Of a stretch of 64,000 nt of DNA, positions 3,344 to 38,736 are shown piece after piece (position 1 is the first letter of the stretch; each line of letters starts with the position of its first letter). Source of the stretch: Minisyncoccota bacterium (lineage in GTDB: Bacteria; Patescibacteriota; Minisyncoccia; Phycocordibacterales; PALSA-1337); contig JBAZBL010000006.1 in NCBI GenBank assembly GCA_041671485.1, positions 6,539-70,538 on the forward strand, in the 5' to 3' direction. The translations under genes were made by a program, and so were the position numbers. The notes beneath the pieces were generated by a model. It was not told the DNA's origin. It worked only from the letters and a program-made list of their open reading frames with translations, and did no database searches.

Positions 3344-3392
3344 TCTCAAATTTAAAGCTAATCCGCCGATAGGCAAATCAAATCTTATAAAT

Positions 3393-4613
3393 ATGGCACA
3401 CTTTGTATTCAAAGCAAAAAAAAGAGATGGTGAAATATATGAAGGTGAGCAAAATGCCACTGATCGATTTGAACTTTATAAACTCATACGAGAAGATGGC
3501 GGAGAGATAATATCTGTAAAAGAAAAAGGAGAAAAAGGCCGTATAATCAAAAACCTTTCAGCAATAAAATTATTTAATAGGGTAAAGACTATTGAAAAGA
3601 TCAATTTTGCACGGAATCTTGGTTCAATGCTCGAAGCGGGCCTTGCTCTATCTAGAGCCATATCTGTTTTGGAAAGACAGACAAACAATAAATTCTTTTC
3701 AAAAATAATCAATAACGTCAATACAGAGATCCGTAAAGGCACAACTTTTTCGGATTCATTGGCAAAACATCCAAAAGTATTTTCTCAATTGTTTATTTCG
3801 ATGGTTCATGCAGGAGAACAGTCTGGAACATTGGCAGAATCATTGAAAGTGGTATCTATACAGATGAACAATTCTTATACTCTCGAAAGGAGAGTGAGAG
3901 GTGCTCTCATCTATCCATCAATAATAGTTTTCATAATGGTTCTCATCGCTATCCTCATGTTTTTATTTGTTGTGCCAACACTTTTGAAAACATTTACAGA
4001 AATGAATGTCACATTACCTCTAACAACAAGGATTGTACTTGGTATAAGTGAAGCTTTTCAGAATTATGGCTTATTGATTCTCATTGCTTTCTTGGCCATA
4101 TCAGGCGGGCTTTATTGGTTTTCAAAACAATATATAGGCAAAAAGATTATACATTTGGGAATATTGAAAATACCAATCATTGGTTCTCTAGTGCAGGAGG
4201 TAAATGCGGCGCGTACAGCAAGAACATTGTCATCACTTCTAAAGGCCGGTGTTCCAGTCGTAGAATCAGTAAGTATCACTTCGGAAGTTGTGCAAAATAT
4301 ATATTTCAAAGCAGTTTTATGCAAAGCAGAAGAAACAATAAAAAAAGGTGAATTGATGTCACAAATATTCAATGAAAATTCAAAACTTTATCCTGTATTT
4401 ATGGCTGAAATGATGAGCGTTGGTGAAGAGACAGGACAGATTGCAGAGACTCTCATGAATGTAGCAACATATTATGAAAATGATGTTGAACAAAAAACAA
4501 AAGATATGTCTACGATTATCGAACCAGTACTCATGGTTATCATTGCAAGTGCGGTAGGATTCTTCGCAATATCTATGATATCTCCAATGTATTCATTGGT
4601 AGATGCAATATAA
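3393..4613 (+). CDS. pilC: Type IV pilus platform protein PilC (GspF family)
   Basis: 406 aa with two T2SS-F domains and three TM segments. Directly downstream of pilB. Confidence 0.9.
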   Translation: MAHFVFKAKKRDGEIYEGEQNATDRFELYKLIREDGGEIISVKEKGEKGRIIKNLSAIKLFNRVKTIEKINFARNLGSMLEAGLALSRAISVLERQTNNKFFSKIINNVNTEIRKGTTFSDSLAKHPKVFSQLFISMVHAGEQSGTLAESLKVVSIQMNNSYTLERRVRGALIYPSIIVFIMVLIAILMFLFVVPTLLKTFTEMNVTLPLTTRIVLGISEAFQNYGLLILIAFLAISGGLYWFSKQYIGKKIIHLGILKIPIIGSLVQEVNAARTARTLSSLLKAGVPVVESVSITSEVVQNIYFKAVLCKAEETIKKGELMSQIFNENSKLYPVFMAEMMSVGEETGQIAETLMNVATYYENDVEQKTKDMSTIIEPVLMVIIASAVGFFAISMISPMYSLVDAI

Positions 4614-6385
4614 TGAAAAAAGGATTTACTCTAGTTGAAGTGCTCGTCGGTTCTGCTGTTTTTGTGGTAGTAGCTATAGCGGCATATGGTGCTTATGCTG
4701 GCGTATTCAAACTAGCAAATCTAAATCAGATGAAAGTTATTGCTGTGCAACTAGCCAATGAACAGTTTGAAATTGCAAGGAATATGACATATGACGATAT
4801 TGGTATAGTGAACGGTATACCAAATGGCACTTTACAGGGTACACAAACACTTACAAGAGCTGGAATGACATTTACTGTTACTAAGATTGTGCGCAATATT
4901 GATTTGCCTACTGACGGACTCATAGGTGGTACACCAAATGATCTTACGCCAGCTGATAATAAATTGATGCAAATAACTGTATCCTGTGCATCCTGCCAGA
5001 ATTTTGGACCCATAGTTTTGTCTGGTCAGATTGCACCAAAAAATGTTGAAGCAGTTTCTACAAATGGTTCCTTGAGAATACAAGTTCTCGATGCAAGTGG
5101 AAATGGAGTTCCTAGTGCAACAGTACGTATAGAATATACAGCTACAACAAGCCCTGTAATAATAAATGATACAACAGATAATAGTGGAATATTGCAGATC
5201 ATAGACATTCCACCCGCTACAGCGGCCTACAATATATATATATCCAAATCAGGATATTCTAGTGATCGTACTTATGCACCTACTCCTCAAAATCCAAATC
5301 CAGACAAACCACCAGCTACGGTTGCTGCACAACAGTTGACTCAAATAAGTTTTGTTATTGATGAATTGAGCAAGCTTTCTTTCAGTAGTGTTACACCATC
5401 ATGTGAAATTGTTCCAAATTTTGATTTTAGTCTAAAGGGTGACAGATTGATAGGTCAAGAATTATCAAGATATTATGTCAATGTTTCAACTAATTCTTCT
5501 GGTATATTAAATATGGATCCTATAGAATGGGATTCCTATACAGTTACACCCAACGATGGTGCTTATGATCTTGCTGGTATCAATCCACTAAATCCTATAA
5601 GTTTAAACCCTGGTAGTACTCAATCAGTGCAATTGATAGCAATTCCTCAAAATACCAATAGTTTACTCTTTACGATCAAGGATAGTTCTACTGACCTACC
5701 ACTATCTGGTGTACTTGTTAAATTATATAGATCTGGGTCTTTGATAGGATCCAAAACTACTGGACAGGGTCATTTGGATCAAGCTGATTGGTCAGGTGGT
5801 GGAGGGCAGGTAGGATTTGTTGATTCAACAAAATATTGGAGTACAGATGGCAATATTGATACTTCATCTGGAGGAAATATTCTCTTGAGAAAAATATTTG
5901 AAAATTATAGTTCAAATGGAATGCTAGAATCATCTACTTTCAATACTGGTACATCTAGTAATTTCTACAATATATCTTGGAGTCCTGGTATACAACCATT
6001 AGTTACTGGACAGGATAGCGCGCGCTTGCAATTTGCTACAAGTCCATCTTCTACACCAGCAATATGGAATTTCTTTGGTCCAGATGGTACAGCGACAACT
6101 TATTATGTAAGTCCAGAATCACCAATCAACAATATACATAGTGGTGATCAATATGCACGTTATCGTGTATATCTTTCAACTATTACAGCGACATCAACAC
6201 CAAATATATCAAATATTTCTTTTACATATACATCCGATTGTATACCTCCTGGACAGGTCATATTTTCGGGTCTATCTAGTGGTACATATACAATAGAAGT
6301 ATCAAAAAGTGGATACTCTACATATTCGAGAGAAATATATCTGGAAAGTTCATGGCAAGAAGAGCAAGTCCTTCTTGGACCATAA
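4613..6385 (+). CDS. Giant prepilin-type protein (590 aa) with carboxypeptidase-regulatory-like beta-sandwich repeats
   Basis: N-terminus MKKGFTLVEVLVGSAVFVVVAIA matches the class III prepilin cleavage/methylation motif G|FTLVE. The C-terminal part has repeats such as RIQVLDASGNGVPSATVRIEY and SGTYTIEVSKSGYSTYS (CarboxypepD_reg-like). Confidence 0.7.
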   Translation: MKKGFTLVEVLVGSAVFVVVAIAAYGAYAGVFKLANLNQMKVIAVQLANEQFEIARNMTYDDIGIVNGIPNGTLQGTQTLTRAGMTFTVTKIVRNIDLPTDGLIGGTPNDLTPADNKLMQITVSCASCQNFGPIVLSGQIAPKNVEAVSTNGSLRIQVLDASGNGVPSATVRIEYTATTSPVIINDTTDNSGILQIIDIPPATAAYNIYISKSGYSSDRTYAPTPQNPNPDKPPATVAAQQLTQISFVIDELSKLSFSSVTPSCEIVPNFDFSLKGDRLIGQELSRYYVNVSTNSSGILNMDPIEWDSYTVTPNDGAYDLAGINPLNPISLNPGSTQSVQLIAIPQNTNSLLFTIKDSSTDLPLSGVLVKLYRSGSLIGSKTTGQGHLDQADWSGGGGQVGFVDSTKYWSTDGNIDTSSGGNILLRKIFENYSSNGMLESSTFNTGTSSNFYNISWSPGIQPLVTGQDSARLQFATSPSSTPAIWNFFGPDGTATTYYVSPESPINNIHSGDQYARYRVYLSTITATSTPNISNISFTYTSDCIPPGQVIFSGLSSGTYTIEVSKSGYSTYSREIYLESSWQEEQVLLGP

Positions 6386-6394
6386 TATAAAAAA

Positions 6395-7024
6395 ATGAAG
6401 TATAAACAATATTATAATAAAAATTATGGCATGACTCTTGTAGAAGTATTGGTTGCTCTTGCTATATTTGTAGTTATTATGGGTGCAGTTATTACATTTC
6501 AGATAAATGTATTTTCATATGAACGTACTGCTTCTGGATCTTTCATAACTGTTCAAGATGCACAAACTATATTGAAAGTTATGGGTAAAGAATTGCGTAT
6601 GGCTTCACAAGGAGGTGATGGTTCATATGCCATACAGGGAGCGAGCACAAGCACTGTTACTTTCTTTGCTGATATCAATAATGATAATAAAAAAGAAAAA
6701 GTTAAGTATTATTTTTCGAAAAGTACTTCATCTATACTAAAGACGACTACTTTACCAACAGGAAGTCCTGCGACATATAGTAATATAAACACTTCTACGA
6801 CTACTATTATGGTGAATGTTCGTAATGCTACATCAACACCAATGTTTGAATATTTCGATTCAGACTATAATGGTAGTGGAATAGCTTTGACACAACCAGT
6901 TGTAAATACTTCAATACGTTTGATCAGGGTCAATATTACATTGGATACAGATCCAAATAAACTACCAGAACCGAGAACATATTCAACACAAATAACACTC
7001 CGTAATCTAAAAGATAATTTATGA
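6395..7024 (+). CDS. Prepilin-type minor pilin
   Basis: 209 aa. GMTLVEVLVALAIFVVIMGAV N-terminal methylation motif. Confidence 0.7.
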   Translation: MKYKQYYNKNYGMTLVEVLVALAIFVVIMGAVITFQINVFSYERTASGSFITVQDAQTILKVMGKELRMASQGGDGSYAIQGASTSTVTFFADINNDNKKEKVKYYFSKSTSSILKTTTLPTGSPATYSNINTSTTTIMVNVRNATSTPMFEYFDSDYNGSGIALTQPVVNTSIRLIRVNITLDTDPNKLPEPRTYSTQITLRNLKDNL

Positions 7025-8457
7025 TTAGAATATATAATAAAGGAGATATTCTCGTTTCGGTTTTAGTCTTTTCTGCTATAGCAATTACTATCACTATAGG
7101 ACTTGTAAATTGGGGTTCTATATTATTGAAAAGTGTTCGTACTTTGGCAGATAAAGGACAAGCATTACAAATTGCCGAGGCCGGAATTGATTATTATCGA
7201 TGGCATCTAGCTCATATGCCAGAAGATTTCATGGATGGTACAGGACAAACTGGACCATATATTCATGAATTCAAAGATAAAGATGGCAATCTAATAGGTA
7301 CATATACTCTTACTATAACTCCTCCATCAATCGGTTCAACTGTTGTAACTATTGTCTCCAAAGGAGCGCTCAATTCAAATCCGAATATTACAAGAAGTAT
7401 CAAAGCTATATTGGCAATACCTTCTTGGGCTCAATATGCTAGTGTAGCAAATGATAATATGCGTTTTGGTTCTGGCACAGTAATTTATGGACCAGTACAT
7501 TCGAATAAAGGTATTCATTTCGATGGTATAACATATGGATTGATGTCGAGTGCTCTCACAACATATGTAGATCCCGATTATGGAGCCAATCGTTGGGCCG
7601 TTTATACGCTTACTAGTCCTTCTGATCCAAACCCTCCAACACCACTACCTTTGAAACCAAATATATTTACTGCAGGCCGTAAAATATCTGTACCAGCCGT
7701 TGATTTTACTGGGCTTACTGCCAATCTGGCTCAATTGAGAACTTTGGCCCAATCAAATGGTATTTATTTGAGTCAATCTCAATACAAAGGGAAATCAGCG
7801 CTAGGTTATCATATTACACTCAAAACCAATGATACTTTCGATGTTCGTGTAGTAACTGCTATAAATAATCCACCAAACAGTAGTTGTTGGAATCTTCTCA
7901 ATCAAAATCAGTGGAGTACATGGAGTATCAAAACCGAGCAATCAGCAGTCAACTATCCAATACCTACAAATGGTATTATCTTTGTGGAAGATAATGTTTG
8001 GGTAGACGGACAGATAAATACTGCAAGATTGACCATAGCAGCTGGGAAATTGCCAGATCCAGGAGCATCAAAATGGTCTAATATCATAATTAATAATGAT
8101 ATTTTGTATACAAATCATGATGGTAATGATGTGATCGGTCTTATTGCTCAAGGAGATGTAAATATCGGTCTTTCTAGTGCAAATAGTCTCGATATTGACG
8201 CAGCTCTTGTTGCACAAAATGGTCGTGTAGGGAGGAATTATTATTCATATTATTGCGGTTCTTCTTATATTCGATCAGATATAAATCTGTATGGCATGAT
8301 CGCTACAAATCAGCGATATGGTTTTGCATATACAGACGATACTGGTTATCGTGATAGGAATATATCTTATGATCCAAATCTCCTATATAGTCCACCACCG
8401 TCATTTCCACTCACATCGAGCTATTATTCTACATTATCTTGGCAAGAAATTAACTAG
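7021..8457 (+). CDS. PilX-like minor pilin / pilus-associated protein with N-terminal TM helix
   Basis: 478 aa. Hydrophobic N-terminus ILVSVLVFSAIAITITIGLV. Last gene of the pilB-pilC-pseudopilin operon. Confidence 0.5.
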   Translation: MIRIYNKGDILVSVLVFSAIAITITIGLVNWGSILLKSVRTLADKGQALQIAEAGIDYYRWHLAHMPEDFMDGTGQTGPYIHEFKDKDGNLIGTYTLTITPPSIGSTVVTIVSKGALNSNPNITRSIKAILAIPSWAQYASVANDNMRFGSGTVIYGPVHSNKGIHFDGITYGLMSSALTTYVDPDYGANRWAVYTLTSPSDPNPPTPLPLKPNIFTAGRKISVPAVDFTGLTANLAQLRTLAQSNGIYLSQSQYKGKSALGYHITLKTNDTFDVRVVTAINNPPNSSCWNLLNQNQWSTWSIKTEQSAVNYPIPTNGIIFVEDNVWVDGQINTARLTIAAGKLPDPGASKWSNIIINNDILYTNHDGNDVIGLIAQGDVNIGLSSANSLDIDAALVAQNGRVGRNYYSYYCGSSYIRSDINLYGMIATNQRYGFAYTDDTGYRDRNISYDPNLLYSPPPSFPLTSSYYSTLSWQEIN

Positions 8458-8503
8458 CTTATTGCTAACTGACGATATATTGTGATTATGCTAAAATGTC
8501 CCT

Positions 8504-9268
8504 ATGAGTAAAAAGCTTATAGTAGGCAATTGGAAGATGAATCCAGGAACATTGGTTGAGGCAAAGAAAATAGCTGGGAAGATAAAAAGAATATCCAAAA
8601 GACTTCAGAATTCAGAAGTAATCATATGTCCACCACTTCCTTTTATTACAAGTTGTGTTTCCAAGAAGAATACAAATAATTTTCATGTTGGTGTTCAGAC
8701 AGTATCTATAGAAAAGGAAGTTGGTCCATTTACTGGGGAAGTGAATGCAAAGATGATGAATAGTATAGGTGCAGAGTATGTAATAGTTGGACATTCTGAA
8801 GAAAGGAAGAGGGGCGATAGCAATGAAATAGTCTCAAAGAAATTGATAAATACTTTGGATGCTGGATTGATATCCATCGTCTGCATAGGAGAAAAAGTCC
8901 GTGACGAAGGAGGTTTATATCTAGAAGAATTAAAAAATCAAATAAAAGAAAGTATTGCAAATATACCAAAGAAATTTGCTAAAGATATAATTATTGCTTA
9001 TGAGCCAATATGGGCAACTGGAGCACAAGAGTCAATGGTGCCTGAACAAATATTTGAAATGTCACTTTTTGCAAAAAAGGCCTTTTCAGATATTTTTGGT
9101 GCCGAAAACGGTCTCAAAGTAAAAGTTTTGTATGGTGGGGCAGTGAACTTCCGGAATGCAGTAGATATCATAAATATAGGCAAGGTAAATGGACTTCTCA
9201 TAGGTCGTGAAAGCGTCAATACTCCAGGATTTATAGAGCTTATTAAGGCGGTGGATAAAATTGCATGA
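8504..9268 (+). CDS. tpiA: Triosephosphate isomerase
   Basis: LIVGNWKMN N-terminal signature, catalytic region AYEPIWAIGTG-like (AYEPIWATGA), GGAVN. Confidence 0.9.
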   Translation: MSKKLIVGNWKMNPGTLVEAKKIAGKIKRISKRLQNSEVIICPPLPFITSCVSKKNTNNFHVGVQTVSIEKEVGPFTGEVNAKMMNSIGAEYVIVGHSEERKRGDSNEIVSKKLINTLDAGLISIVCIGEKVRDEGGLYLEELKNQIKESIANIPKKFAKDIIIAYEPIWATGAQESMVPEQIFEMSLFAKKAFSDIFGAENGLKVKVLYGGAVNFRNAVDIINIGKVNGLLIGRESVNTPGFIELIKAVDKIA

Positions 9269-12757: not shown

Positions 12758-13245
12758 AGTATATAATTTTTACAGATGGTTCTTCTCGAGGCAATCCAGG
12801 GCGTGGTGGCTGGGCAGTCGTTATTATTGAGGATGATTCTATGGTTATTGAACTTGGTGGCAGGGAAGACAAGGCTACGAACAATAGGATGGAATTAACC
12901 GCAGCAATTGAAGCTCTTTCACAAACATCAAGAGATGCAGATATAACTCTATATACAGATTCATCTTATCTCATAGGTGGTATCACAAAATGGGTTAAAG
13001 GATGGAAGAAAAATGACTGGAAAAGAGATATTTGGCAGAAAGATATAAAAAAAGATGTTTTGAATAGAGATCTTTGGGAGAAACTTGATGAATTGAATAT
13101 GGTACGAAATGTTAAATGGAATTATATAAGAGGACATACTGGTAATCATGGAAATGAAAGATGTGACGAAATAGCAACTGCTTTTGCAGATGGTGAAAAA
13201 ATCAGTCTTTTCGAGGGGAAAATGGAAGTCTGGCAGAAAAAATAG
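12754..13245 (+). CDS. rnhA: Ribonuclease HI
   Basis: 163 aa. TDGSSRGNPGRGGWAVVI plus DEDD catalytic residues and GHTGNHGNERCDEIA. Confidence 0.9.
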   Translation: MKYIIFTDGSSRGNPGRGGWAVVIIEDDSMVIELGGREDKATNNRMELTAAIEALSQTSRDADITLYTDSSYLIGGITKWVKGWKKNDWKRDIWQKDIKKDVLNRDLWEKLDELNMVRNVKWNYIRGHTGNHGNERCDEIATAFADGEKISLFEGKMEVWQKK

Positions 13246-13259
13246 GTATTATCGAGATC

Positions 13260-13286
13260 TATTACCGAGATCCGATCTCGGTAATA
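13260..13286. terminator. 27-nt perfect palindrome immediately after the rnhA stop
   Basis: tattaccgagatc c gatctcggtaata. A partial direct repeat tattatcgagatc precedes it. Confidence 0.35.
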
Positions 13287-13296
13287 ATACCGAGTC

Positions 13297-13443
13297 CCCG
13301 AGGCCCGCCTTCGGCGGGGTAGGCCTCGGGAGTGGATTTTATCATTTCTTCAGCAGAATTTTATCAGGATTTTATCTCATTGTGATATCGTGCAGGTTGT
13401 GGAGGTTTCGTTGCGCAGGTCTACCCTGCGCAACGAAACCTCC
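13297..13443 (+). repeat. Composite repeat element, copy 1: GC hairpin (ggtaggcctcgg type), 42-nt AT-rich motif with three ATTTTATC repeats, TGaTAT box, then a REP hairpin
   Basis: Same layout at 17004-17157 and 42798-42916 (reverse strand). The 42-nt motif lies at 13337-13378 and the REP unit cgcaggtctaccctgcg at 13414-13430. The element ends 10 nt before the comEC start. Confidence 0.7.
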
Positions 13444-13453
13444 GCAAAAACCT

Positions 13454-14827
13454 ATGAAGAAAGGCGTGTTTATATTCTGGTTTATTATCATCGGAATCAC
13501 AGTTTTCCGTCTGGTATTTTCTTATGCATCAAATATTTCTATTACAAATGATTGTATGAAAGAGAAGGTGACTGGAATGGGTATGATTACCGAAGAACCG
13601 GAGCGCAAAGAAACTGGGCAAATCCTAATAATCAAAGTAGATGAATTATTAACAAATGAAGCAGATAAATGTTCTAGTGATATATTGATTCGTGCAAAGA
13701 CAAAATTATATCCACGATTTTCTTTTGGAGATCACATCAAATTTATTGGTAATTTATCTGAACCATATAATTTCTCTAGTAATGATGGTAGAACATTCGA
13801 TTATCGTAATTATCTAGCCAAAGACGACATTTATTTTGAGATCAAAAGTGCAATAGTAGAGAAGATCAATGAAGAAAAATCATTTTCAATAAAAGGATCA
13901 CTATATAAGATAAAAAGAAGATTTGTTTCAAATATAGAGCAAGTATTGGGAGAACCTCATTCTGCATTTGCTGCTGGTTTGGTGGTTGGTGAGAAGGGTT
14001 CGATAGGGAAGAGTTTACTCGATGATTTTAGGATTACAGGATTGATACATATCGTCGTTCTGTCTGGCTTCAATATCACAATCATTGCCGATGCTATCAG
14101 GAAACTTCTGTCGAGATTGCCTAGAATGTGGGGTATTTTGCTTGGTGGCCTAGGTATTATTCTCTTTGGAATAATGGTTGGTGGTGGAGCTACGGTTATA
14201 CGTTCTTGTGTTATGGCGAGCATTGCTCTATCTGCCGAATTGGTTAGGCGAGATTATAGTGTTGTACGTGCACTTGTATTTGCAGGAATGATAATGCTCA
14301 TACAAAATCCTATGATCTTATTTCACGATCCATCTTTCCAGCTTTCTTTCTTGGCAACACTGGGTTTGGTCATTCTCGCAAGGCCGATAGAAGATAGACT
14401 GACGTTTTTGCCAGAGAAGTTTGGTTTTAGGAGTATAATATCTGCTACATTTGCTACTCAAATATTTGTATCACCATTTATTCTCTATATGATGGGTCAA
14501 TTGTCTATTATTGGTGTTGTAGTCAATGTCTTGGTCTTGCCATTTATACCTATTACTATGCTAGCTGTATTTCTCGTAGGTATTTCTGGCTTTATTTTTG
14601 AACCCATATCACAATTTTTCAGCTATTTCGCATACGCCCTTCTCTCTTATGAACTCAATATGGTCGAATATTTCGCAAAAATACCCTTTGCCTCATTCAA
14701 AATCCCCGCATTTTCATTCTGGTGGGTTGTGGGGTTTTATCTGGGGTTTTCAATAATCTTTTACTATTTTTATCGGAGAAATAGAGTGAGGGCAGAGAAT
14801 AATATGCTCATTACCTCGACCCATTGA
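13454..14827 (+). CDS. comEC: ComEC/Rec2 competence membrane channel (N-terminal DUF4131 + competence domains, no MBL domain)
   Basis: 457 aa and polytopic. The ORF-track start at 13184 only translates the upstream repeats. ATG 13454 begins MKKGVFIFWFIIIGITVF. The Competence-domain core GLIHIVVLSGFNITIIADAI is present. Confidence 0.75.
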   Translation: MKKGVFIFWFIIIGITVFRLVFSYASNISITNDCMKEKVTGMGMITEEPERKETGQILIIKVDELLTNEADKCSSDILIRAKTKLYPRFSFGDHIKFIGNLSEPYNFSSNDGRTFDYRNYLAKDDIYFEIKSAIVEKINEEKSFSIKGSLYKIKRRFVSNIEQVLGEPHSAFAAGLVVGEKGSIGKSLLDDFRITGLIHIVVLSGFNITIIADAIRKLLSRLPRMWGILLGGLGIILFGIMVGGGATVIRSCVMASIALSAELVRRDYSVVRALVFAGMIMLIQNPMILFHDPSFQLSFLATLGLVILARPIEDRLTFLPEKFGFRSIISATFATQIFVSPFILYMMGQLSIIGVVVNVLVLPFIPITMLAVFLVGISGFIFEPISQFFSYFAYALLSYELNMVEYFAKIPFASFKIPAFSFWWVVGFYLGFSIIFYYFYRRNRVRAENNMLITSTH

Positions 14828-14887
14828 CATTTTAGTCAATATGTATAATATAGATTTTAGAACACCTTAACAAAAAGGATACAACAT

Positions 14888-15598
14888 ATGTCTGAAAAGT
14901 CTGAAAGTTTGTACGAATTGGTTCCCCACAAAGGAGATTCTCCTTTGAGAGTGGAACTGAACAAAGGAGTCGCAAGACTTCAATCTGCGCAAAACACTCA
15001 ATTCCGTCCCCACGTCTGTTTAAACGGTGAGGATGGGATTAAAGTCATTCAAAGAATAGTTGCTGATCCGGAAAAAGCAAATACTGCATACTGGCTCAAT
15101 GACTGTTTCATTGTCTCTGGAGATGATGTATGGCTCAATACGAGACTAAGCATCTTCCTGGATTCAATTGGTTCTAGCAATCATGTATTGTTGAGTCCAC
15201 AACAGACTGGCTATATCGTGGGCAATCTTCGGGAAGAATCCAAGAGGATTGTCGTTGAAAAGGTCAAGACATGGTTCATTGGGAAAGTCTTACCAGGTGT
15301 GCAAAAGGGTCTAGATACTATCAAAGAACAGTTTGAGAAAGGGGACCCTCTCATTGCAAGTGACCATAGAAATCGGATATTTGATATCCATGGTGGATGT
15401 TCTATGGAGGATATTCCTTATACCGAAACTGTTGTTGCTGGAGAGGAACTCTTCTGGTCAGTTGTTCATGGAAACAGTCTTTATAGTTACGGTTGTGATG
15501 GGTACAATAATGCCGATGAAGTCATAACTGGACGAAGGAATGAGCAGAGAGCTGCGGTTGGGGAGTTTTTGGGAGCTTTTCGCGCAATTAGGCGCTAA
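14888..15598 (+). CDS. Hypothetical protein; local GC higher than surroundings
   Basis: 236-aa ORF with no recognisable motif. Followed by a weak terminator-like hairpin. Confidence 0.45.
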   Translation: MSEKSESLYELVPHKGDSPLRVELNKGVARLQSAQNTQFRPHVCLNGEDGIKVIQRIVADPEKANTAYWLNDCFIVSGDDVWLNTRLSIFLDSIGSSNHVLLSPQQTGYIVGNLREESKRIVVEKVKTWFIGKVLPGVQKGLDTIKEQFEKGDPLIASDHRNRIFDIHGGCSMEDIPYTETVVAGEELFWSVVHGNSLYSYGCDGYNNADEVITGRRNEQRAAVGEFLGAFRAIRR

Positions 15599-15805
15599 TT
15601 GTCAGTTCTGTATGAAAGCGTTTTACTCTGTGGTAGGGCGCTTTTTCTTTTCCAAACAATACTGATTAGATCAAAAACCAATGTAATATCGCTTCTTCTG
15701 CTTTTCTATTTAAAATTACTTCTAAGGCTATAGTATGAACCTTCAAAGAGGGGTTGCAATTAGCCTGCAAATTCACTCCTCACAATTTGACAAGACTAAT
15801 GATAT

Positions 15806-16321
15806 ATGCTACCATCTTGGGTAGGAGTTTTATTCCAAATAATAACAACCATCAACAAAAGGAAATGGATGAAAGATTTTTTCGACATTAGCGATCAGGA
15901 GGAATTCAAGCAGTGGGCAGATGAAATCTGTGCACTTGCTCAGATTCCAACTCAACATTCTGATGTTACGGCATATTACAGGAAATCCATCGAGGAATGG
16001 TATTGCATAGAGACATGGCAACGCGAGGAACTCATGGAGTCTTACGAGAAATGGTTATCAGAGCTTGCTGCTGATTCGTCAGCATACTGTTCTGTAAAAC
16101 TTTCGGTGGGTGAGTTGAGAAACTTGTCTATCGTGGATCTCGACAACTTTAGCTCCTATGTCATAACTTTCTTGCCATCCAGAGTTGTTCATGAACGTAA
16201 CGAGGCTGAAGGTCTAACCGAAGAACACACAAAAAGAGCATTGGTCAAGTTCCAGAAGTTGCTAAATGATGCTCTAGAACGAGAACGAATACTCGACGAA
16301 ATCTCTAAGATTGGTCAATAA
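15806..16321 (+). CDS. Hypothetical protein (true start probably 15869, MKDFF...)
   Basis: 171-aa ORF. A TTGACA (15787-15792) / TACCAT promoter-like pair overlaps the first ATG. An AAAGGA Shine-Dalgarno precedes the ATG at 15869. Confidence 0.45.
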   Translation: MLPSWVGVLFQIITTINKRKWMKDFFDISDQEEFKQWADEICALAQIPTQHSDVTAYYRKSIEEWYCIETWQREELMESYEKWLSELAADSSAYCSVKLSVGELRNLSIVDLDNFSSYVITFLPSRVVHERNEAEGLTEEHTKRALVKFQKLLNDALERERILDEISKIGQ

Positions 16322-16435
16322 CTGATTTGGGGATTCAATACAATCTAACTGCAATCTGGAATATGGTTGCAGTTGTTTTTTGTCTTTTTCTAAACATCAA
16401 CCCAAAATCTATGTAATGTCACTTATTCTGCTTTT

Positions 16436-16981
16436 CTATTTGAAATTCTTCTCCACCACTTCCCAATTCAAATTTTCGAAAAAGTCATCCACATATTGCT
16501 TCTTGCCACTCGGCTGATAGTCAGCAACATAGGCATGTTCCCACATATCGAGGGCGATGATGGGGGACAGGCCTGTTAAGTGGCCGATGTGCTGTTCATC
16601 CACCCATTGATTGAATAGGCGTTTGGTATGTGGATCATAATACAAGAAAGCCCAGCCGATACCGCGGGTTAGGGCAAGACTCTTGAATTGGGTCAGCCAA
16701 TTTTCAAAAGAATTCCATTCTTGAGCGATGGTTTTTACCAAAGGACTATTTGAGTTGAATGGAGTTGAGCCGCCTTCAAATTGCGTGAAATAATATTCAT
16801 GATTTCTCATACCATCAAATTCAAAAGCGAAACGGCGCTGGAGTTCATTATCACCAGTTTTTTCTAGAATTAAATTGGCATTTTTCACATAACCAGCATA
16901 AAGCTTGAGATGCTCTTCTATATTCTTGGTCGAAATGCCTTTTAATACAGGAATACTGAACTTTTTTTCATTGAATGCCAT
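16436..16981 (-). CDS. sodA: Fe/Mn superoxide dismutase
   Basis: 181 aa with the C-terminal signature DMWEHAYV. The N-terminal His ligand region is atypical. Confidence 0.8.
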   Translation of the reverse strand: MAFNEKKFSIPVLKGISTKNIEEHLKLYAGYVKNANLILEKTGDNELQRRFAFEFDGMRNHEYYFTQFEGGSTPFNSNSPLVKTIAQEWNSFENWLTQFKSLALTRGIGWAFLYYDPHTKRLFNQWVDEQHIGHLTGLSPIIALDMWEHAYVADYQPSGKKQYVDDFFENLNWEVVEKNFK

Positions 16982-17003
16982 AGTGGTATTGTAACATATG
17001 TTT

Positions 17004-17157
17004 TTCCCGATGCCTACTCTCGGAGGTCGTCGATTTTATCATTTCTTCAGCGAAATTTTATCAGGATTTTATCTCGATATGATATGGTGCAAGTTGCGGA
17101 GGCCTTGTTGCGCAGGGTAGACCTACGCACAACGTGCGTAGGTCTACCCTGCGCAAC
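17004..17157 (+). repeat. Composite repeat element, copy 2: degenerate GC hairpin, 42-nt ATTTTATC motif, TGaTAT box, then a REP doublet
   Basis: 42-nt motif at 17034-17075. REP doublet cgcagggtagacctacg (17111-17127) and cgtaggtctaccctgcg (17136-17152). Ends 10 nt before the ATG at 17168. Confidence 0.7.
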
Positions 17158-17167
17158 GAAAACTACC

Positions 17168-18094
17168 ATGCTCAAACGAATAATTATTTTCATAGTAATC
17201 TTTGGTCTTTTATCTGGTGCTGTTTTCTACATATATCATCTAGAAAACCGCGCGCAATTGCTCGAAATATTCGTTTTTAATATTAAAAGTGGTAATTCTA
17301 TATTCATTCGCACCCCAAATGATAAAAGGATACTCGTAAATGGTGGTTCGAATTCGCAAGTCTTGAGAGAAATAACAAAGATTTTGCCTTTTTATTCACG
17401 TCGTATAGATATGGTTATTGCTACAAATACAGAAGGCAAGAATGTTGCGGGGCTGATTGACATTCTAGGTCGTTATAAAGTCGATCGAGTCATATTATCA
17501 GCAATTACTTTGCAATCCATAGGTCTTTCGACAAGTACTGATCTCATATATGAGACTTTTTTGGATTCGATAAATATTCCAAAAAGGGAAGTTAGTGCTG
17601 GAGAATCGATAGTGTTGGACAAATCAAATGGGAATGATGATTTTGGAGAAAATGATATAGTTGCCGATATTTTATTTCCAGTATCAGCCGACACATTTTC
17701 CTATTCAAAGACAAGTGATCCAGAAATTGTTCTAAATATTAATTTTGGCTCAACAAATATATTGCTAGTCGGTAACACCACGCCAAAGATTCAAAAGTTC
17801 ATCACTTCGACCGCTGAATTGGACAGGATTATGAATAATACCAATGTATTGGTAATTTCTAATAATGCTTCGAAGACAAATTTGGCAAAACAAATGGTTG
17901 ATGAATTTAAGCCCAAATATGTAATCTATTCAAAGTTATTATCAAGTGGCAAGACGGCAAATGGTTCAATAGAAAATACCAAAGATGATCCACTTCTCGG
18001 CATTCCCGAAGCAAATAGATATAATATAAAAGAAAAAGGATCCATAAGGATCATTTCTGATGGCTCTATTGTAAGAGTCGAAGAGTCTAGATGA
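17168..18094 (+). CDS. ComEC C-terminal-like metallo-beta-lactamase-fold domain protein (degenerate; HxHxDH absent)
   Basis: 308 aa. VFNIKSGNSIFIRTPNDKRILVNGG resembles the ComEC MBL region LDVGQGDAILI...ILIDGG. The His motif is replaced by ATNTEGKNVAG. The ORF-track start at 17084 translates the REP. Confidence 0.5.
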   Translation: MLKRIIIFIVIFGLLSGAVFYIYHLENRAQLLEIFVFNIKSGNSIFIRTPNDKRILVNGGSNSQVLREITKILPFYSRRIDMVIATNTEGKNVAGLIDILGRYKVDRVILSAITLQSIGLSTSTDLIYETFLDSINIPKREVSAGESIVLDKSNGNDDFGENDIVADILFPVSADTFSYSKTSDPEIVLNINFGSTNILLVGNTTPKIQKFITSTAELDRIMNNTNVLVISNNASKTNLAKQMVDEFKPKYVIYSKLLSSGKTANGSIENTKDDPLLGIPEANRYNIKEKGSIRIISDGSIVRVEESR

Positions 18095-23981: not shown

Positions 23982-26900
23982 ATGAAAAAAATAATATCTT
24001 TCGTCCTGCCACTCACAATCTTTGTATTTGCTATAGTTATTGTGGTTATGCCGAACAATGTTTCTGCGCAGACTGCCGTTGAGTGTCCTGTTGGGTATAC
24101 ATGTACACCGATTACAGTTACTCCTGTTGCACCATCGCCTATTCCAGTTCCGATTCCTCCTACGACAGTTTATCCATCATGTTATGTATTCTCAACTAAT
24201 CTTCAGATCGGAAGTAAAGGTGCTGATGTTGTAGCTTTACAGACATGGCTGATTGAGCATGGTTTTGATATTCCAGCTATCACGCAAGAGTTTGCATCTA
24301 AGGGATATTTTGGTCCCGCGACTGCTTCAGTGGTCAAAAAATATCAGGCCAGTGTAGGTATAGAGTCAACAGGATACTTTGGTCCGGAGACTAGAGCGAG
24401 AGTGAATGGGGAGTGTGGTGGTGGGATTGTTCCGACTTCAAATATATTTACTTTTATTAGTCAAAACATAGCATCCAATGCGGGTGTAGTAGATGTTGCA
24501 TCGAGTTCATTGACAGGAAAAGTTGTGTTCAAGATGAAAGCCATAGGTGGAGATATGACAAAGCCAGTTGCTAGTGATTTTGATGTTGTTTTTAGTAGTC
24601 CTTCTGTGGTAATACCGATACAACCAATTATTACAGTTACTCCAAATGATACTGCAATAGCAGAGAGTGGCGAATATACGGTTATTATTGCTGGTACATT
24701 GTATTCAAACAATCCATCTGTACCAGCAGGCTCAAATATTTATCAGATGCTGATTAAAAGTGCAAAGTATCATATCATTGGAAAAACAGTATCTAGTCAG
24801 TTAACTCCATATCTCAAAACTACTCAAGCATCACTGTTCAAAAGTGGTTCAAGTTCTACACAATCTTCTGTAATTATTTCTCAAAATTCTATTAACTTTT
24901 CTGCTAATCAGGGTGATACTCAGTATCAGCAAAAGTCATTGACAATTACTAACACAAGTAGTACGAATATTAGTTTCAATATAAGTGTACCCAATCAGCC
25001 AAGCTGGCTTAATGTATCATATAACACAAATACGATGATCGCCTACCCAAACAGTCCTGTTGGGATTGGAGCATCACTTGATCCAAAGAGTCTATCAGTT
25101 GGAACATATAGCACAAACATAATTCTAACTGGTAATTTCCAAGGCTCTCCTATAAACATTCCGGTTAAAGTAACCATCTTGCCACAATCAGCTACTTCTA
25201 CGACAAACCCTGAAGTTTCGGCTTCACCTGCGAGCGTTTCCTCTGGTGGCACTAGTTTTATCAGATTTACTATGCCTGCAAATACGGTGTCAGCCACCCT
25301 AACTCTCTCTTGTCCTTTTGGTGTTTCTGTTAAGGGTTATGACAGTATGAGAAATATAGTTGGTTCGGAGGAACTCTGTAGCAAAAATCAGAATATAAGC
25401 ATTTATGCAAGTGGTGAGGAAATAATGTTGACAAATACTTCTTTGGTGAGTACTAACATTGTTGTCGCTAATTTCTCTGTTTATACACTAGACAATCCAA
25501 ACTATGCTCGAACTGTTTCTGTGAAGATTACTGTAGCTCCTACTCAAGCCACTCAACCCTCCATCACCGTCTTGAGTCCAAATGGAGGAGAGGTGTGGAG
25601 TATTGGGAATAAATACACAATTAAATGGTCAAGCACAAATTTGAAGCAAAATAATGTTCGTATTGGTATTGTAGATTCACGTTCAGGAGTCAATGCTGGC
25701 GGAGACATAGTAGTTACTCCAAATACAGGAAGTTACATGTGGACAGTACCACAAAGTATTGGAAATATTGATTTCACCTCAAATACTTTACCTATTTATA
25801 AAATAGCAGTTTCTTCAGAGAATGTTGTCAATGGTGATTTTGCCGCAGATCTCAGTAATAAACCGTTCACCATCACTTCTCAAACCACTAAACCATATAT
25901 CACTTCTGTCGCAGGCAAAGCCGCTGGAAATGGTGAAATTGATGCTGGTGGAACAGTTGGCATCCAAGGAACAAATCTTCTTGGATATAAAGACAGCACG
26001 AATGTGTATATAGGCGGGCAAGTGTGCACGATTACACAGTTGAGCAACACGTTAATCTATTGTACTGCTCCTTCTACATTGCAGGTTGGTAGTGTCTATG
26101 ATCTCTACATAAATACCACAGGAATGGGTGGTGACAAAGTTACTAGCAATATAGTAAAAGTGAAAGTTCTAAGTAATGTCTCCAAGCCCTCTATCACCGT
26201 CTTGAGTCCGAATGGGGGAGAAAGTTTTGTGGCAGGAGGCAATCTTACTGGATCATTTGCGTCAAATAATCTTTCTGTAGGTAATACTTACGAAGTTGCT
26301 TTAGTTGGTCAGGGATATGATAGAGATATAGGTTATGGTCTCATCACTTCTACATCTGTTGATAAGCAATCTCTATCTGTAAATATTCCAAATGATGTTC
26401 CTGCAAAAGAAAATTATTACCGTGTTCGTTTGGTAGTTGGATGCAATAATTCAGGAGAATTATGTGTACAGGATCAAAGTGATCGTAATTTTACCATCAC
26501 TTCTTCAAATACTAAACCCTCCATTACCATCCAAAGTCCAAGAGGTGAAGAAACATATAAGATTGGCGATAAAGTAAAGGTTAAATGGGAAACAAGAAAC
26601 ATCTCTTCAAATGCCTACTTAGACATAATTCGTTTGAGGAATCTCAATCTTCAACAAGAATACTCACTTGCTTCACCTGTAATAAATGATGGCAATGAAA
26701 CTGTGACGATACCATCTGTGCCAGCGGGAACATATACTCTTGAAATCAAATCATCTGTTAAAGGTTACGTGGATGCTATTACGGGATCAAGCGGAAAATT
26801 CACAATAACTTCTCCAAATTCTCAACCCTCCATCACCGTCTTGAGTCCAAATGGGGGAGAGATATATAGAGTGGGAAACAGGGTAAATGTAAATTGGTCT

Positions 26901-28451
26901 ATTGGTGGTTCAATCCCTACCTCTTGGCCAACAGATAATGTAGGTCGCCCTCAGGTTATAATTGATTTATATACAAGTGGAGGTAATTTTGTTCAGCATC
27001 TTTCGGCTTTGCATGGTGGAGGCCCGACATTTCCATTTGATATACCAAATGTGTTACCGGGTAATTATGTAATTAGAGTGTGGGCTGTAAATAACCTTCC
27101 ATATTTTGGACAAAGCGGAACATTTACCATCACTTCAGCGACTCAAAATATACTAACAGTTTCAGTCGCACCTTCATCTGTACAGGCGGCATCTGCAGGA
27201 ACAAGTAATGTTGATCTCTTAGATGTGGATCTTAATGTGAACACTGGCGTAGCAAATATTGCTGGCATAAGTGTTACTGATATTTCTCCGAATAACAAAA
27301 CAAATCTTACAAATCTATGGCTTTCAGGTAGCAATTTGGCGGGGGCAAGAATTACTGGTGTAACTAGAAGTATCCCTCTCGTTAATAGTACGTACCCGAA
27401 TGCAATGCAATATGATTTTGATTTTCCAACTACTATCAATATCATCGCTGGTCAGCCACTACACCTTCATGTAATGGGTGATGTAACTTCTCGAGCAAGT
27501 GGCTATATACAACTTCAATCTTCTGGCGTGGGATATAACGATTCGACTTTAAAGGTAAATAGTGTAGGTCAGTATGGAAATAGAATTCAAGTATGTCAGT
27601 TAGGACAATTTTGGAACGGTTCGTCATGCGTTATCTCAACTCCTGCCAACCGCCCACCTGTCATAAGTGGTGGCACATTCCCAACAACACTAAATGTTGG
27701 TGAGACTGGAACATGGAGGGTGAATGCAAGTGATCCGGAGAATGGACCTATAAGTTACGAAATAGATTGGGGTGATACTGGGGCAGGGTCAGCTACGCCT
27801 CCTCTATTAGAGTCTCCCCTTGTAGATACTCATCTCTATTCTTCTGCGGGCACATATACAGTGAAGTTTACAGTTACAGATAATGGTGGACTATCAGCAC
27901 AGACGACTGCTACAGTACAAATAAACAGTCAAACAACCTCTACTGTAACCCGCGAAGCGGTCCGTCAGCTCTATCTTACATTACTTCGTCGCGAACCAGA
28001 TCAGCAGGGTTGGGACTATTGGATGAAGTATTCTAGCAATATTGATGTGATCAAACAGGCTATTATGAATACCACTGAATATCGAAATCTACAATTGCCA
28101 ACAGTCACTCTATCTGCCACTTCTGTTGCCAGTTCAGATGCAGTAGCCAAGTCATACACCGTGAAATGGTCTTCAACAAATATGAATTCTTGTACTCTAA
28201 CGACGAATGCTACGAAAGGAGATGAAGATTCAGATAATTGGTCAGGATATATTGGTCCAGTGAATACCTCTGGCAGTATTACTGCTCCTGTTTCTGGTTC
28301 TCTTACAGTAACAGTTACTTGTACTGGCTCTGCCGGTAGTACTTCAAAGAGCGTTACTCTGACTGGGAATCAAGCATATGCACCAAGTAACAGTTTGAAT
28401 GCCGCGATCTGGGATGCTATTAGAGAATATTTCAGGAATGGTGGGAGGTGA
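23982..28451 (+). CDS. Giant secreted/cell-surface protein (1489 aa)
   Basis: Signal/TM N-terminus. PG_binding_1-like module GSKGADVVALQTWLIEHGF...YFGPATASVVKKYQ. Repeated PSITVLSPNGGE... modules, three with near-identical nucleotide sequence at about 25555, 26185 and 26823. PKD domain EIDWGDTG...GTYTVKFTVTDNGG. DUF4214-like REAVRQLYLTLLRREPDQQGWDYW. Confidence 0.8.
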   Translation: MKKIISFVLPLTIFVFAIVIVVMPNNVSAQTAVECPVGYTCTPITVTPVAPSPIPVPIPPTTVYPSCYVFSTNLQIGSKGADVVALQTWLIEHGFDIPAITQEFASKGYFGPATASVVKKYQASVGIESTGYFGPETRARVNGECGGGIVPTSNIFTFISQNIASNAGVVDVASSSLTGKVVFKMKAIGGDMTKPVASDFDVVFSSPSVVIPIQPIITVTPNDTAIAESGEYTVIIAGTLYSNNPSVPAGSNIYQMLIKSAKYHIIGKTVSSQLTPYLKTTQASLFKSGSSSTQSSVIISQNSINFSANQGDTQYQQKSLTITNTSSTNISFNISVPNQPSWLNVSYNTNTMIAYPNSPVGIGASLDPKSLSVGTYSTNIILTGNFQGSPINIPVKVTILPQSATSTTNPEVSASPASVSSGGTSFIRFTMPANTVSATLTLSCPFGVSVKGYDSMRNIVGSEELCSKNQNISIYASGEEIMLTNTSLVSTNIVVANFSVYTLDNPNYARTVSVKITVAPTQATQPSITVLSPNGGEVWSIGNKYTIKWSSTNLKQNNVRIGIVDSRSGVNAGGDIVVTPNTGSYMWTVPQSIGNIDFTSNTLPIYKIAVSSENVVNGDFAADLSNKPFTITSQTTKPYITSVAGKAAGNGEIDAGGTVGIQGTNLLGYKDSTNVYIGGQVCTITQLSNTLIYCTAPSTLQVGSVYDLYINTTGMGGDKVTSNIVKVKVLSNVSKPSITVLSPNGGESFVAGGNLTGSFASNNLSVGNTYEVALVGQGYDRDIGYGLITSTSVDKQSLSVNIPNDVPAKENYYRVRLVVGCNNSGELCVQDQSDRNFTITSSNTKPSITIQSPRGEETYKIGDKVKVKWETRNISSNAYLDIIRLRNLNLQQEYSLASPVINDGNETVTIPSVPAGTYTLEIKSSVKGYVDAITGSSGKFTITSPNSQPSITVLSPNGGEIYRVGNRVNVNWSIGGSIPTSWPTDNVGRPQVIIDLYTSGGNFVQHLSALHGGGPTFPFDIPNVLPGNYVIRVWAVNNLPYFGQSGTFTITSATQNILTVSVAPSSVQAASAGTSNVDLLDVDLNVNTGVANIAGISVTDISPNNKTNLTNLWLSGSNLAGARITGVTRSIPLVNSTYPNAMQYDFDFPTTINIIAGQPLHLHVMGDVTSRASGYIQLQSSGVGYNDSTLKVNSVGQYGNRIQVCQLGQFWNGSSCVISTPANRPPVISGGTFPTTLNVGETGTWRVNASDPENGPISYEIDWGDTGAGSATPPLLESPLVDTHLYSSAGTYTVKFTVTDNGGLSAQTTATVQINSQTTSTVTREAVRQLYLTLLRREPDQQGWDYWMKYSSNIDVIKQAIMNTTEYRNLQLPTVTLSATSVASSDAVAKSYTVKWSSTNMNSCTLTTNATKGDEDSDNWSGYIGPVNTSGSITAPVSGSLTVTVTCTGSAGSTSKSVTLTGNQAYAPSNSLNAAIWDAIREYFRNGGR

Positions 28452-28608: not shown

Positions 28609-28650
28609 TTTTATCATTTCTTCAGCCAAATTTTATTTGGATTTTATCTC
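28609..28650 (+). promoter_or_regulatory. Third copy of the 42-nt AT-rich ATTTTATC-triplet motif, without flanking REPs; lies 23 nt upstream of ORF 28673
   Basis: ttttatcatttcttcagccaaattttatttggattttatctc. Followed by the palindrome ttggtca gtaa tgaccaa. Confidence 0.5.
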
Positions 28651-28672
28651 TCTCTGATACAGTTGGTCAGTA

Positions 28673-29068
28673 ATGACCAATAAATGGCGTAATATAGTTG
28701 GGAATGCAAGAGAAAAATACAAGAAAATGCAACCTGTTGCATGTCCAGCCTTTGGTGGTGAACTAGTGTATTTCAATAAACATGGATTCAATCATCTCAT
28801 AAGAAAAGGTCGAAGATTTCGCAAAATAGATGTCCAAATTGATCGCATTCAATTAATTGGAACAGCTATCGATACCCTGCAAAGATCTTCTACGGTTTAT
28901 CGTTATCGTAAGGTAAATACTGTAAAATCAGTAATGCAGTTCTGGGCATTCGAAGACGATCTCATAATAGATAATAAAAAAGTATCCATAATAGTCGTTG
29001 TCAGAAAAATGAACAATGGTAAAATTCATTTTTTTAGTATATTCAAGAGAAAACACAAAACCCCCTAA
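28673..29068 (+). CDS. Hypothetical basic protein (131 aa)
   Basis: ORF with the conserved AT-rich motif upstream and a terminator overlapping its stop. No recognisable domain. Confidence 0.45.
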   Translation: MTNKWRNIVGNAREKYKKMQPVACPAFGGELVYFNKHGFNHLIRKGRRFRKIDVQIDRIQLIGTAIDTLQRSSTVYRYRKVNTVKSVMQFWAFEDDLIIDNKKVSIIVVVRKMNNGKIHFFSIFKRKHKTP

Positions 29069-35299: not shown

Positions 35300-35349
35300 G
35301 TTTACACAGGGTAGACCTGCGTATATACGCAGGTCTACCCTGTGTAAAC
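35300..35349. repeat. REP doublet (REPIN-like) placed just after the pilM stop
   Basis: gtttacacagggtagacctgcg tatata cgcaggtctaccctgtgtaaac, a 50-nt perfect palindrome. Confidence 0.8.
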
Positions 35350-35396
35350 TTATTCACAGCGTAAAAAGACTTTATATCTGATATAATACACAAAGT

Positions 35397-36645: not shown

Positions 36646-36647
36646 AA

Positions 36648-36944
36648 ATGAAAAATCAATCTTCAAAAAAATCATGGTTGATAATCAGTGGTATAATAAT
36701 AATTGCAATCATTGTTTATTTTATGTTCTTCTCTGGAACACCAGACATTGAAGATCAAACAATGTTGCAAATGACAAATGCTGAAGAAACAGGTATGGAT
36801 GTACTATCTCTTTTAAATCAGATTCAATCACTTAGGATAGATTCGGAATTCTTTGATAGTACGGTTTACAAATCTCTTCAGGATTATTCTGTTGCAATAC
36901 CAACACAGGATGTTGGCAGGGACAATCCATTTGCTCCAATCTAA
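36648..36944 (+). CDS. Small membrane protein, possibly PilP-like
   Basis: 98 aa with an N-terminal TM helix. Last small gene before pilB2. Confidence 0.3.
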   Translation: MKNQSSKKSWLIISGIIIIAIIVYFMFFSGTPDIEDQTMLQMTNAEETGMDVLSLLNQIQSLRIDSEFFDSTVYKSLQDYSVAIPTQDVGRDNPFAPI

Positions 36945-38717: not shown

Positions 38718-38736
38718 TTTGTGATACAATCTATAT

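Follow-up and report, generated by a model that had tools for sequence, protein, structure and literature searches.

A two-gene ComEC with a degenerate nuclease module and matching promoter-like arrays in a Paceibacteria genome

The two comEC genes

The competence gene comEC exists as two separate genes in the stretch of DNA studied here, a window of 64,000 nucleotides (nt) of contig JBAZBL010000006.1, from a low-GC (37%) metagenome-assembled genome of the Paceibacteria (Patescibacteria, also called the Candidate Phyla Radiation or CPR). The first gene, comEC-N (13454-14827, + strand), encodes a channel subunit of 457 residues (aa); the second (17168-18094, +) encodes a stand-alone ComEC C-terminal module of 308 aa with a metallo-beta-lactamase-like (MBL-like) domain. 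They lie about 2.3 kb apart, as an initial annotation of this DNA had described, and both parts are homologous to ComEC. Between them are the superoxide dismutase gene sodA on the opposite strand and two open reading frames (ORFs) with a GC content of 0.43 and 0.42, above that of the comEC halves (0.36 and 0.34) and of the window (0.374). The elements noted there were all found, at the same positions or a few bases away. What did not survive was the idea that the intervening DNA, or a recent event, had split comEC: judged by its sequence relatives, the supposed insertion-disrupted gene is the ordinary form for its lineage.

The channel half starts with one N-terminal transmembrane (TM) helix, followed by an OB fold plus the competence domain. 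It scores with Pfam Competence (PF03772, E 6.9e-51) and TIGR00360 (69.8 bits against a cut-off of 36.5), and its OB fold is recognized as DUF4131 (PF13567, E 7e-9, 36 bits against a cut-off of 31.6). With the MBL module in a separate ORF, it scores 91.7 bits against the full-length equivalog TIGR00361, under the cut-off of 190. In the 801-aa Moorella ComEC (30bt_A) its alignment spans residues 143-498; the protein stops past the helix equivalent to TM10, with the sequence RRNRVR after its last helix.

The product of the second gene is labelled a hypothetical protein of "Candidatus Paceibacterota" at NCBI. It has no match in Pfam, Lactamase_B included, or in NCBIfam, and a contig index look-up held no record of its exact sequence. 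Yet a search of the PDB with the single sequence retrieves the ComEC beta-lactamase-like domain (E 2.7e-4), and a profile built from 28 members of its family retrieves residues 523-755 of 30bt_A (E 6.3e-15). Its AlphaFold2 (AF2) model has a pLDDT of 89.9, and the best Foldseek match of that model is the ComEC MBL domain 9ic4 (E 1.1e-17, target-normalised TM-score 0.75). The protein is thus of the ComEC type, as proposed at the outset. Aligned to full-length ComEC, the two window proteins cover complementary parts of 30bt_A, residues 143-498 and 523-755. Cryo-electron microscopy has shown that TM10 and TM11 of ComEC are linked by a short cytoplasmic helix and that the MBL domain is periplasmic (PMC13539106). 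The complementary coverage therefore places the split point between the equivalents of TM10 and TM11, and the distribution of charges agrees with this: RRNRVR closes the channel half, and KR stands ahead of the single helix of the MBL-like protein, a signal anchor with its N-terminus inside that corresponds to ComEC TM11.

The metal motif is indeed missing from the MBL-like protein, the HPDADH of ComEC being aligned to NTEGKN, and the loss goes further than that. All the metal-ligand motifs are replaced in the window protein (the Asp of GQGD, HxDxDH, the Asp of TGD, the His of HHGS and the His of YGHP). Compared to canonical stand-alone relatives, in which all motifs are intact and Pfam Lactamase_B (PF00753) is matched, DVGQGD has become IKSGNS, THxDxDH has become TNTEGKN, TGD has become VGN, GHHGS has become SNNAS, and YGHP is lost. 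Where canonical relatives have HxDxDH, not a single member of the MBL-like family has a His; where they have HHGS, one His survives in many members (SHSA), while the window protein, with SNNAS, has none. A further group of relatives is half-decayed, with for example T-K-N-D-D-T-H. From these replacements, the MBL-like protein appears to have lost DNA cutting. Nonetheless, an alignment of 28 sequences of the family shows 25 invariant columns at a mean column identity of only 37%, which argues for purifying selection on a conserved protein rather than for a decaying remnant. The family also has an invariant motif of its own, F-x-Y-S-K-x-S-x-P-E, that is not found in canonical ComEC MBLs.

We fetched 78 species-level loci and mapped the window proteins onto each of them. 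The prevailing order is RecJ, RNase H, ComEC-N(+), sodA(-), MBL-like(+), L28(-), M50 protease and S12, and the core of it, ComEC-N followed by sodA on the opposite strand and then the MBL-like gene, is found in the genomes of 66 other Paceibacteria species. Identity to the window proteins across related genomes is 46-68% for ComEC-N, 52-64% for sodA and 32-48% for the MBL-like protein, whose gene is the fastest-evolving of the neighbourhood. Among the best-matching relatives, no intact single gene turned up. Among 129 homologues of the MBL-like protein, the 120 listed are all stand-alone, of about 210-370 aa, and none of these 120 matches Pfam Lactamase_B. In an exhaustive profile search of 1.84 billion representatives, with 184 clusters below 1e-30, the best 150 matches are 98-396 aa long and none of them is fused. 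Three genomes lack sodA (L005, L011 and L058), and in these too ComEC-N and the MBL-like protein are separate ORFs. In L058 the stop codon of ComEC-N (6538-7965) and the start codon of the MBL-like gene (7962-8948) overlap as ATGA, which suggests translational coupling of the two halves.

The same gene order also informs on the sequence of events. Canonical stand-alone MBLs that match Lactamase_B (P0232 and P0225) and a half-decayed one (P0195) all sit in the ComEC-N / sodA / MBL / L28 context, so that the split and the placement of sodA are older than the catalytic decay. The most likely order of events, as read from these sequences, is a fission with sodA between the halves, followed by the loss of catalytic residues in one sub-clade. 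A published survey had already found CPR genomes to be practically devoid of the ComEC-MBL fusion (PMC6744442, Meheust et al. 2019), and our window is an instance of this. The separate MBL partner, the synteny with sodA, the catalytic decay and the shared promoter arrays described below come from the present analysis and go beyond what the searchable part of that survey covers; in the searchable literature, we found no published account of a separate MBL partner in CPR, of its decay or of its regulation.

The DNA between the two genes

The gene between the halves, sodA (16436-16981, -), was correctly recognized at the outset. It encodes an Fe/Mn superoxide dismutase (Pfam Sod_Fe_C, E 9e-24) and occupies the same position in the 66 other genomes. 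Its two flanks behave very differently: the interval between sodA and the MBL-like gene measures 47-550 nt in related loci, with a median of 185 nt, whereas the junction between comEC-N and the 3' end of sodA ranges from an overlap up to 3,985 nt, being at most 150 nt in 36 genomes and more than 350 nt in 28. The ORFs carried in this junction are mostly unrelated between species. Taken together, these sequence comparisons tell us that the two extra ORFs of the window sit in a lineage-wide variable slot and have no role in the split.

Each of these two ORFs has the layout of a small cargo cassette on the + strand. The first cassette (14824-15645) consists of a promoter-like site (TTGACA-16-TAATAT, 14824-14851), ORF 14888-15598 (236 aa) and a terminator-like hairpin (15614-15645); the second (15787-16375) consists of a promoter-like site (TTGACA-17-TACCAT, 15787-15815), ORF 15869-16321 (150 aa) and a terminator-like hairpin (16346-16375). 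The initial annotation had the second ORF begin at 15806. The ORF itself is real, but position 15806 falls inside its own promoter-like site, which makes 15869, the start chosen by gene callers, the likely one. The product of ORF 14888 belongs to a family with 20 homologues (21 matches including the window's own) that are found in unrelated genomic contexts. It has no match in Pfam, NCBIfam or PADLOC, and its AF2 model (pLDDT 82.5) has no significant fold match in the PDB (best E 0.15). The second ORF is an orphan, only itself being found among 5.8 billion proteins.

GC content at third codon positions (GC3) is 0.43 for sodA versus about 0.31 for the conserved neighbours, and it is likewise above the neighbours in the cargo ORFs. 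A part of this excess is a trait of the clade, since sodA is richer than its neighbours in 80% of related genomes, with a median excess of +0.04. The excess of the window, +0.12, is the third highest of 65 genomes. As a test of horizontal transfer or replacement of sodA, GC3 is thus suggestive, not decisive.

The direct repeat of about 50 bp that had been described around the second ORF, with some 86% identity, is there: 43 of 50 positions agree, with one 1-nt indel, between copy 1 (15674-15723) and copy 2 (16404-16452). The similarity continues with indels, through the preceding T-runs, to 15642 and 16379 respectively. Its local score is 80, whereas none of 300 shuffles exceeded 56, and no further copy exists in the window. 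The second copy does overlap the 3' end of sodA, of which it includes the last 17 nt (16436-16452). Since the reverse strand of copy 1 ends in N-F-K-stop, we consider copy 1 to be the relic of a sodA 3' end together with its downstream spacer. The repeat had been taken as the footprint of an insertion that brought in this ORF, and the presence of a relic sodA end makes a local insertion plausible; the part of the claim that does not hold is that this insertion split comEC. On the simplest reading, ORF 15869-16321 would have arrived through a recombination anchored in or beyond sodA, with the resident junction persisting beside it, and sodA may have been replaced in the same event. The duplication of 50-82 nt would then be a plausible mark of that insertion.

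Promoter-like arrays and REP hairpins

Upstream of comEC-N lies an array of four tandem 11-nt units, gaTTTTATCAt / ttCTTCAGCAg / aaTTTTATCAg / gaTTTTATCTc (13335-13378, +). It is followed, 9 nt after the last unit, by a predicted extended -10-like box, TGaTATCGT (13383-13391, +), and then by a hairpin of the repetitive extragenic palindrome (REP) type (13397-13447), which lies in the gene's 5' leader and has a stem of 23 bp around GCGCAGGTCTACCCTGCGC. The MBL-like gene is preceded by a second four-unit array (17032-17075, +), by an extended -10-like box read from the sequence as TGaTATGGT (17080-17088, +), and by an inverted doublet of the same hairpin, similar to a REPIN, with a perfect stem of 24 bp (17107-17157) in its 5' leader. 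Public gene calls in L083 are over-long for both genes (comEC-N as 13190-14827, 545 aa; the MBL-like gene as 17084-18094, 336 aa) and translate across promoter array and REP hairpin alike; the -10-like box contains the ATG at 17084 with which the 336-aa calls begin.

The similarity of the two leaders had been reported as one composite promoter-like element. Its presence before both halves is clear, the copies being 82% identical over 101 nt with none expected by chance, but it is not one unit: by sequence comparison, it is a conserved, putatively regulatory array joined to a species-specific REP hairpin, and the two have different histories. A third copy of the array, with the REP hairpin (42837-42880, -), lies upstream of an ORF for a RAYT-like Y1 transposase (42220-42792, -). 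A fourth copy, without REP hairpin (28609-28648, +), lies upstream of an LPD3-like ORF of 131 aa (28673-29068, +), whose LPD3 match is weak (E 1.4e-5) and below the cut-off. Just upstream of this fourth array is a gene for a secreted repeat-rich protein of 1489 aa (23982-28451, +). An array-like match with a score of 25 of 28 is also seen at 14735-14774 (+), inside the 3' coding region of comEC-N; the promoter-like site of ORF 14888 follows after about 50 nt. This match, in a T-rich region encoding membrane helices, is probably due to chance.

The arrays are widespread and are found at the same two genes. An exact 18-mer of the array occurs twice in each of three other species, upstream of both genes. 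We scored arrays as four phased units of the consensus YTTKAWC, which was derived from the same loci, and so defined they occur upstream of ComEC-N in 34 of 67 cases at a score of at least 24 (58/67 at 22 or more), and upstream of the MBL-like gene in 40 of 77 (55/77). The genes for RecJ, RNase H, sodA, L28, M50 and S12, pooled, have none among 389 at the higher threshold and eight at the lower one, and random windows have 2/383 and 19/383. The loci, 1.05 Mb in all, contain 91 arrays, 63 of them before ComEC-N or the MBL-like gene; about 12 more are mis-assigned to spurious ORFs at these same two genes. The genuine other sites include an operon for a PilB-like ATPase (L034 and L051) and the LPD3-like small ORF, both in the window (28609-29068) and in L047, where a homologous ORF of 125 aa (14429-14803, minus strand) also has an upstream array. 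Arrays mostly comprise 4-7 units with an 11-nt period, the T-T pair being conserved at 94-97% and the A at 91%. In 55 of the 61 arrays in which a TAnnnT box was found (92 arrays considered), the last unit lies 9-10 nt before it. The 11-nt phasing, the conserved T-T-x-A core and the constant spacing to the -10 box all point to recognition that is sequence-specific and takes place on one face of the helix.

Some searches for arrays came back empty. None was detected in three loci with a canonical stand-alone MBL, a sample too small to conclude that arrays are restricted to the decayed clade, and a scan of metagenome contigs with the 41-nt array core gave 0 matches. In the window, no array was detected upstream of the pilB-like gene at 1592 or of the ComFC-like gene at 30720-31397. 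The former opens a type IV pilus cluster resembling a type II secretion system (1592-8457; PilB-like, PilC-like and pseudopilin genes), which is situated upstream of comEC at a distance of about 5 kb. A second cluster of this kind lies at 34202-46635, with pilB, a receiver-only response regulator (38737-39147), pilT, pilC, pilins, a prepilin peptidase and minor pilins. The ComFC-like protein (30720-31397, -) has a phosphoribosyltransferase fold, a weak Pribosyltran match and an ...VIDDVITTGSTM... motif, and is likely the product of another competence gene.

The REP hairpins tell a more local story. The 19-nt palindrome GCGCAGGTCTACCCTGCGC is present in 13 copies in 64 kb versus 0 expected by chance, mostly as inverted doublets, at 13413-13431, 17110-17154, 35304-35345, 42184-42230, 42652-42670, 42800-42818, 44251-44294 and 48717-48758. 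Two of these sites (42184-42230 and 42800-42818) flank the Y1 transposase ORF, and one copy lies inside it. The product of this ORF scores 34.7 bits with Y1_Tnp, against a cut-off of 23, and 40.6 bits with the RAYT model NF047646, under the cut-off of 80. The hairpin is absent from the loci of other species, which makes it a species-specific element: ahead of both comEC halves it separates the -10 box from the start codon, which in most other species are only about 8 nt apart. A second type of GC-rich palindrome (CCGAGGGTAGGCCTC... / GAGGCCTACCCTCGG) is seen directly upstream of the array at 13283-13334, 17008-17031 and 42885-42925; this could represent another REP family or belong to a longer composite unit. 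The window also holds a probable integrated mobile element (56326-60965), as judged from a primase/helicase-like protein with Prim-Pol and AAA_25 domains (56326-58158), a large serine recombinase (58310-59851) and a LAGLIDADG-domain ORF (60282-60965).

The vicinity of REP hairpins and a transposase raises the question of whether the arrays are regulator sites at all, or rather a promoter module spread by gene conversion or by a mobile element. Two arrays of one genome are about twice as alike as arrays between genomes, and the best match of an array is its own partner in 32 of 66 genomes, as would be expected if one were copied onto the other. Also, REP hairpins directly adjoin the array at three of the four sites of the window, one of which precedes the Y1 transposase gene. 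However, the hairpin is found in none of the other species' loci while arrays lie at the same two genes in most of them, the fourth array of the window has no REP, and the 11-nt phasing, the T-T-x-A core and the fixed spacing of 9-10 nt to the -10 box speak for sequence-specific recognition. We therefore regard a copied module as unlikely.

A proposed two-part ComEC and its counterparts

We think it likely that the two-gene ComEC is the normal form of the protein in a large clade of Paceibacteria, with an ancient split, a dead MBL domain and matched promoters, to which cassettes and REP hairpins have been added locally. According to this model, the product of the first gene (13454-14827) would contribute the OB fold and the membrane channel and end in the cytoplasm. 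The TM11-like anchor of the second (17168-18094), with its N-terminus inside, would place the beta-lactamase-like domain outside the membrane, as in one-piece ComEC, and the two proteins could reassemble into a ComEC-like machine. In one-piece ComEC the active MBL domain touches the OB fold (PMC13539106); here the dead domain might act as a structural or DNA-guiding partner at the mouth of the channel, the non-imported strand being handled by another nuclease or not degraded at ComEC. The 11-nt units would be binding sites of one tandem-binding activator, the array standing in for a -35 box, and such matching promoters would keep the two genes in step and the subunits co-expressed. Local to the window genome would be the REP/REPIN hairpins in both 5' leaders, the two cargo cassettes and the 50-82-nt duplication.

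More tentatively, the arrays may be the operator of a Paceibacteria DNA-uptake regulon that includes comEC, the dead subunit, pilus ATPase operons and small ORFs, and that has co-evolved with a putative activator, the MBL protein being an obligatory structural subunit. This broader proposal is possible.

Several observations weigh against these interpretations. That the two proteins associate is something we infer, and the loss of the canonical ligands is not strict proof that every catalytic activity is gone. The linkage of the two genes is not obligatory either: in L029, where the locus has no ComEC-N, the MBL-like gene comes straight after RNase H, and in L034 (3820-8882) and L051 (3700-9017) the MBL-like gene comes directly after a pilus operon instead of sodA and ComEC-N. 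Regarding the arrays, the consensus was taken from the very loci that are counted, and a sigma-70 consensus scan did not call the array promoters, which it misses because they have no -35. A scan of ten window ORFs revealed no DNA-binding regulator, only the receiver-only response regulator (38737-39147), an AAA/DUF4143 protein and mobile-element genes. The arrays also precede the RAYT-like gene and the LPD3-like ORF, which is a misfit for a pure competence regulon. As for the local insertion, no strain lacking 15724-16403 was found among the four contigs of this population: the three others that carry ORF 14888 are 100% identical to the window.

In another explanation, ComEC-N works alone, as in Helicobacter pylori, while the MBL-like protein now serves some unrelated purpose in the cell envelope and is nearby by inherited order only. 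The loss of all catalytic motifs fits such a neofunctionalisation, as do the fast evolution of the gene (32-48% identity versus 46-68% for ComEC-N), the clade-specific F-x-Y-S-K-x-S-x-P-E motif, absent from canonical ComEC MBLs, and the loci L029, L034 and L051, in which ComEC-N is not adjacent. However, it is these two genes, unlike their neighbours, that share a promoter array evolving in concert, and their ATGA overlap in L058 suggests translational coupling. Even in L034 and L051 the MBL-like gene stands behind genes of a type IV pilus, that is DNA-uptake machinery: the operon encodes a PilB-like ATPase, a PilC-like protein and pseudopilin-like ORFs, and carries an array before the ATPase gene. 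An unrelated function thus seems improbable to us. A recent disruption, in which sodA, two foreign ORFs and repeats would have broken an intact comEC in this genome and left an MBL remnant to decay, has the raised GC3 of sodA and cargo ORFs, the direct repeat flanking ORF 15869 and the lost metal motif in its favour, but it is ruled out by the synteny data, and its likelihood is negligible in view of the 66 other species (32-48% protein identity) and the canonical-MBL lineages that share both the split and sodA, the 25 invariant columns of a strongly conserved family and the lack of any fused close relative among the best 150 representatives.

The interest of this locus is therefore lineage-wide, and lies in a conserved two-gene ComEC, a nuclease module probably turned pseudo-enzyme and a shared array that evolves in concert. 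CPR bacteria lack nucleotide synthesis and are believed to rely on taking up DNA; ComEC ranks with the best conserved of their membrane proteins, and the one genetic tool demonstrated for them to date is natural competence (PMC10187176). If the two-gene model is true, many "hypothetical" proteins of 300 aa would be ComEC subunits, some public starts of both genes would need shortening, and a non-cutting role for the beta-lactamase-like domain would become testable. The shared array would provide a motif for genome scans and a bait for pull-downs in organisms whose transcriptional control is almost uncharted. Should the regulon proposal be true as well, the array would rank among the first cis-regulatory codes to be defined for CPR DNA uptake, and the MBL-like protein would be a pseudo-enzyme subunit of it.

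The elements of the locus have counterparts in known systems. REP/RAYT systems have mostly been described in Proteobacteria. As in these systems, short palindromes occur in many copies between genes and flank a gene for a Y1 (HUH) transposase; what differs is that the RAYT-like protein falls below the NCBIfam cut-off and that two genes have hairpins in their 5' leaders, on the downstream side of the promoters. Pho boxes are tandem direct 11-nt repeats that abut the -10 region and take the place of a -35 box. The arrays resemble such class II activator sites of the OmpR/PhoB type in that phased 11-nt repeats abut the -10 box and no -35 is matched, but they differ from a Pho box in having 4-7 units rather than 2 and a consensus of YTTkAwC. 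The likeness is architectural only, and the regulator only putative.

ComEC/Rec2 is a one-piece protein in Bacillus subtilis and in Moorella/Neomoorella (30bt, 9ic4), and the OB fold, the channel, the last peripheral TM helix and the extracytoplasmic MBL domain follow here in the same order and topology. The differences are that there are two polypeptides, cut in the cytoplasmic loop between TM10 and TM11 and encoded about 2.3 kb apart with sodA in between, that a single TM helix precedes the OB fold, and that all the metal-ligand motifs of the MBL domain are replaced. A single N-terminal TM helix is also seen in Helicobacter pylori ComEC (PMC13539106). Import of DNA without a catalytically competent MBL domain has precedents too: in Streptococcus pneumoniae ComEC the domain is probably inactive and EndA is proposed to cut the strand, and H. 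pylori ComEC/ComE3 has no MBL domain (PMC12455585). While the inactive domain is still fused in the pneumococcus and is gone in H. pylori, in these Paceibacteria it is a separate, conserved and putatively co-regulated protein.

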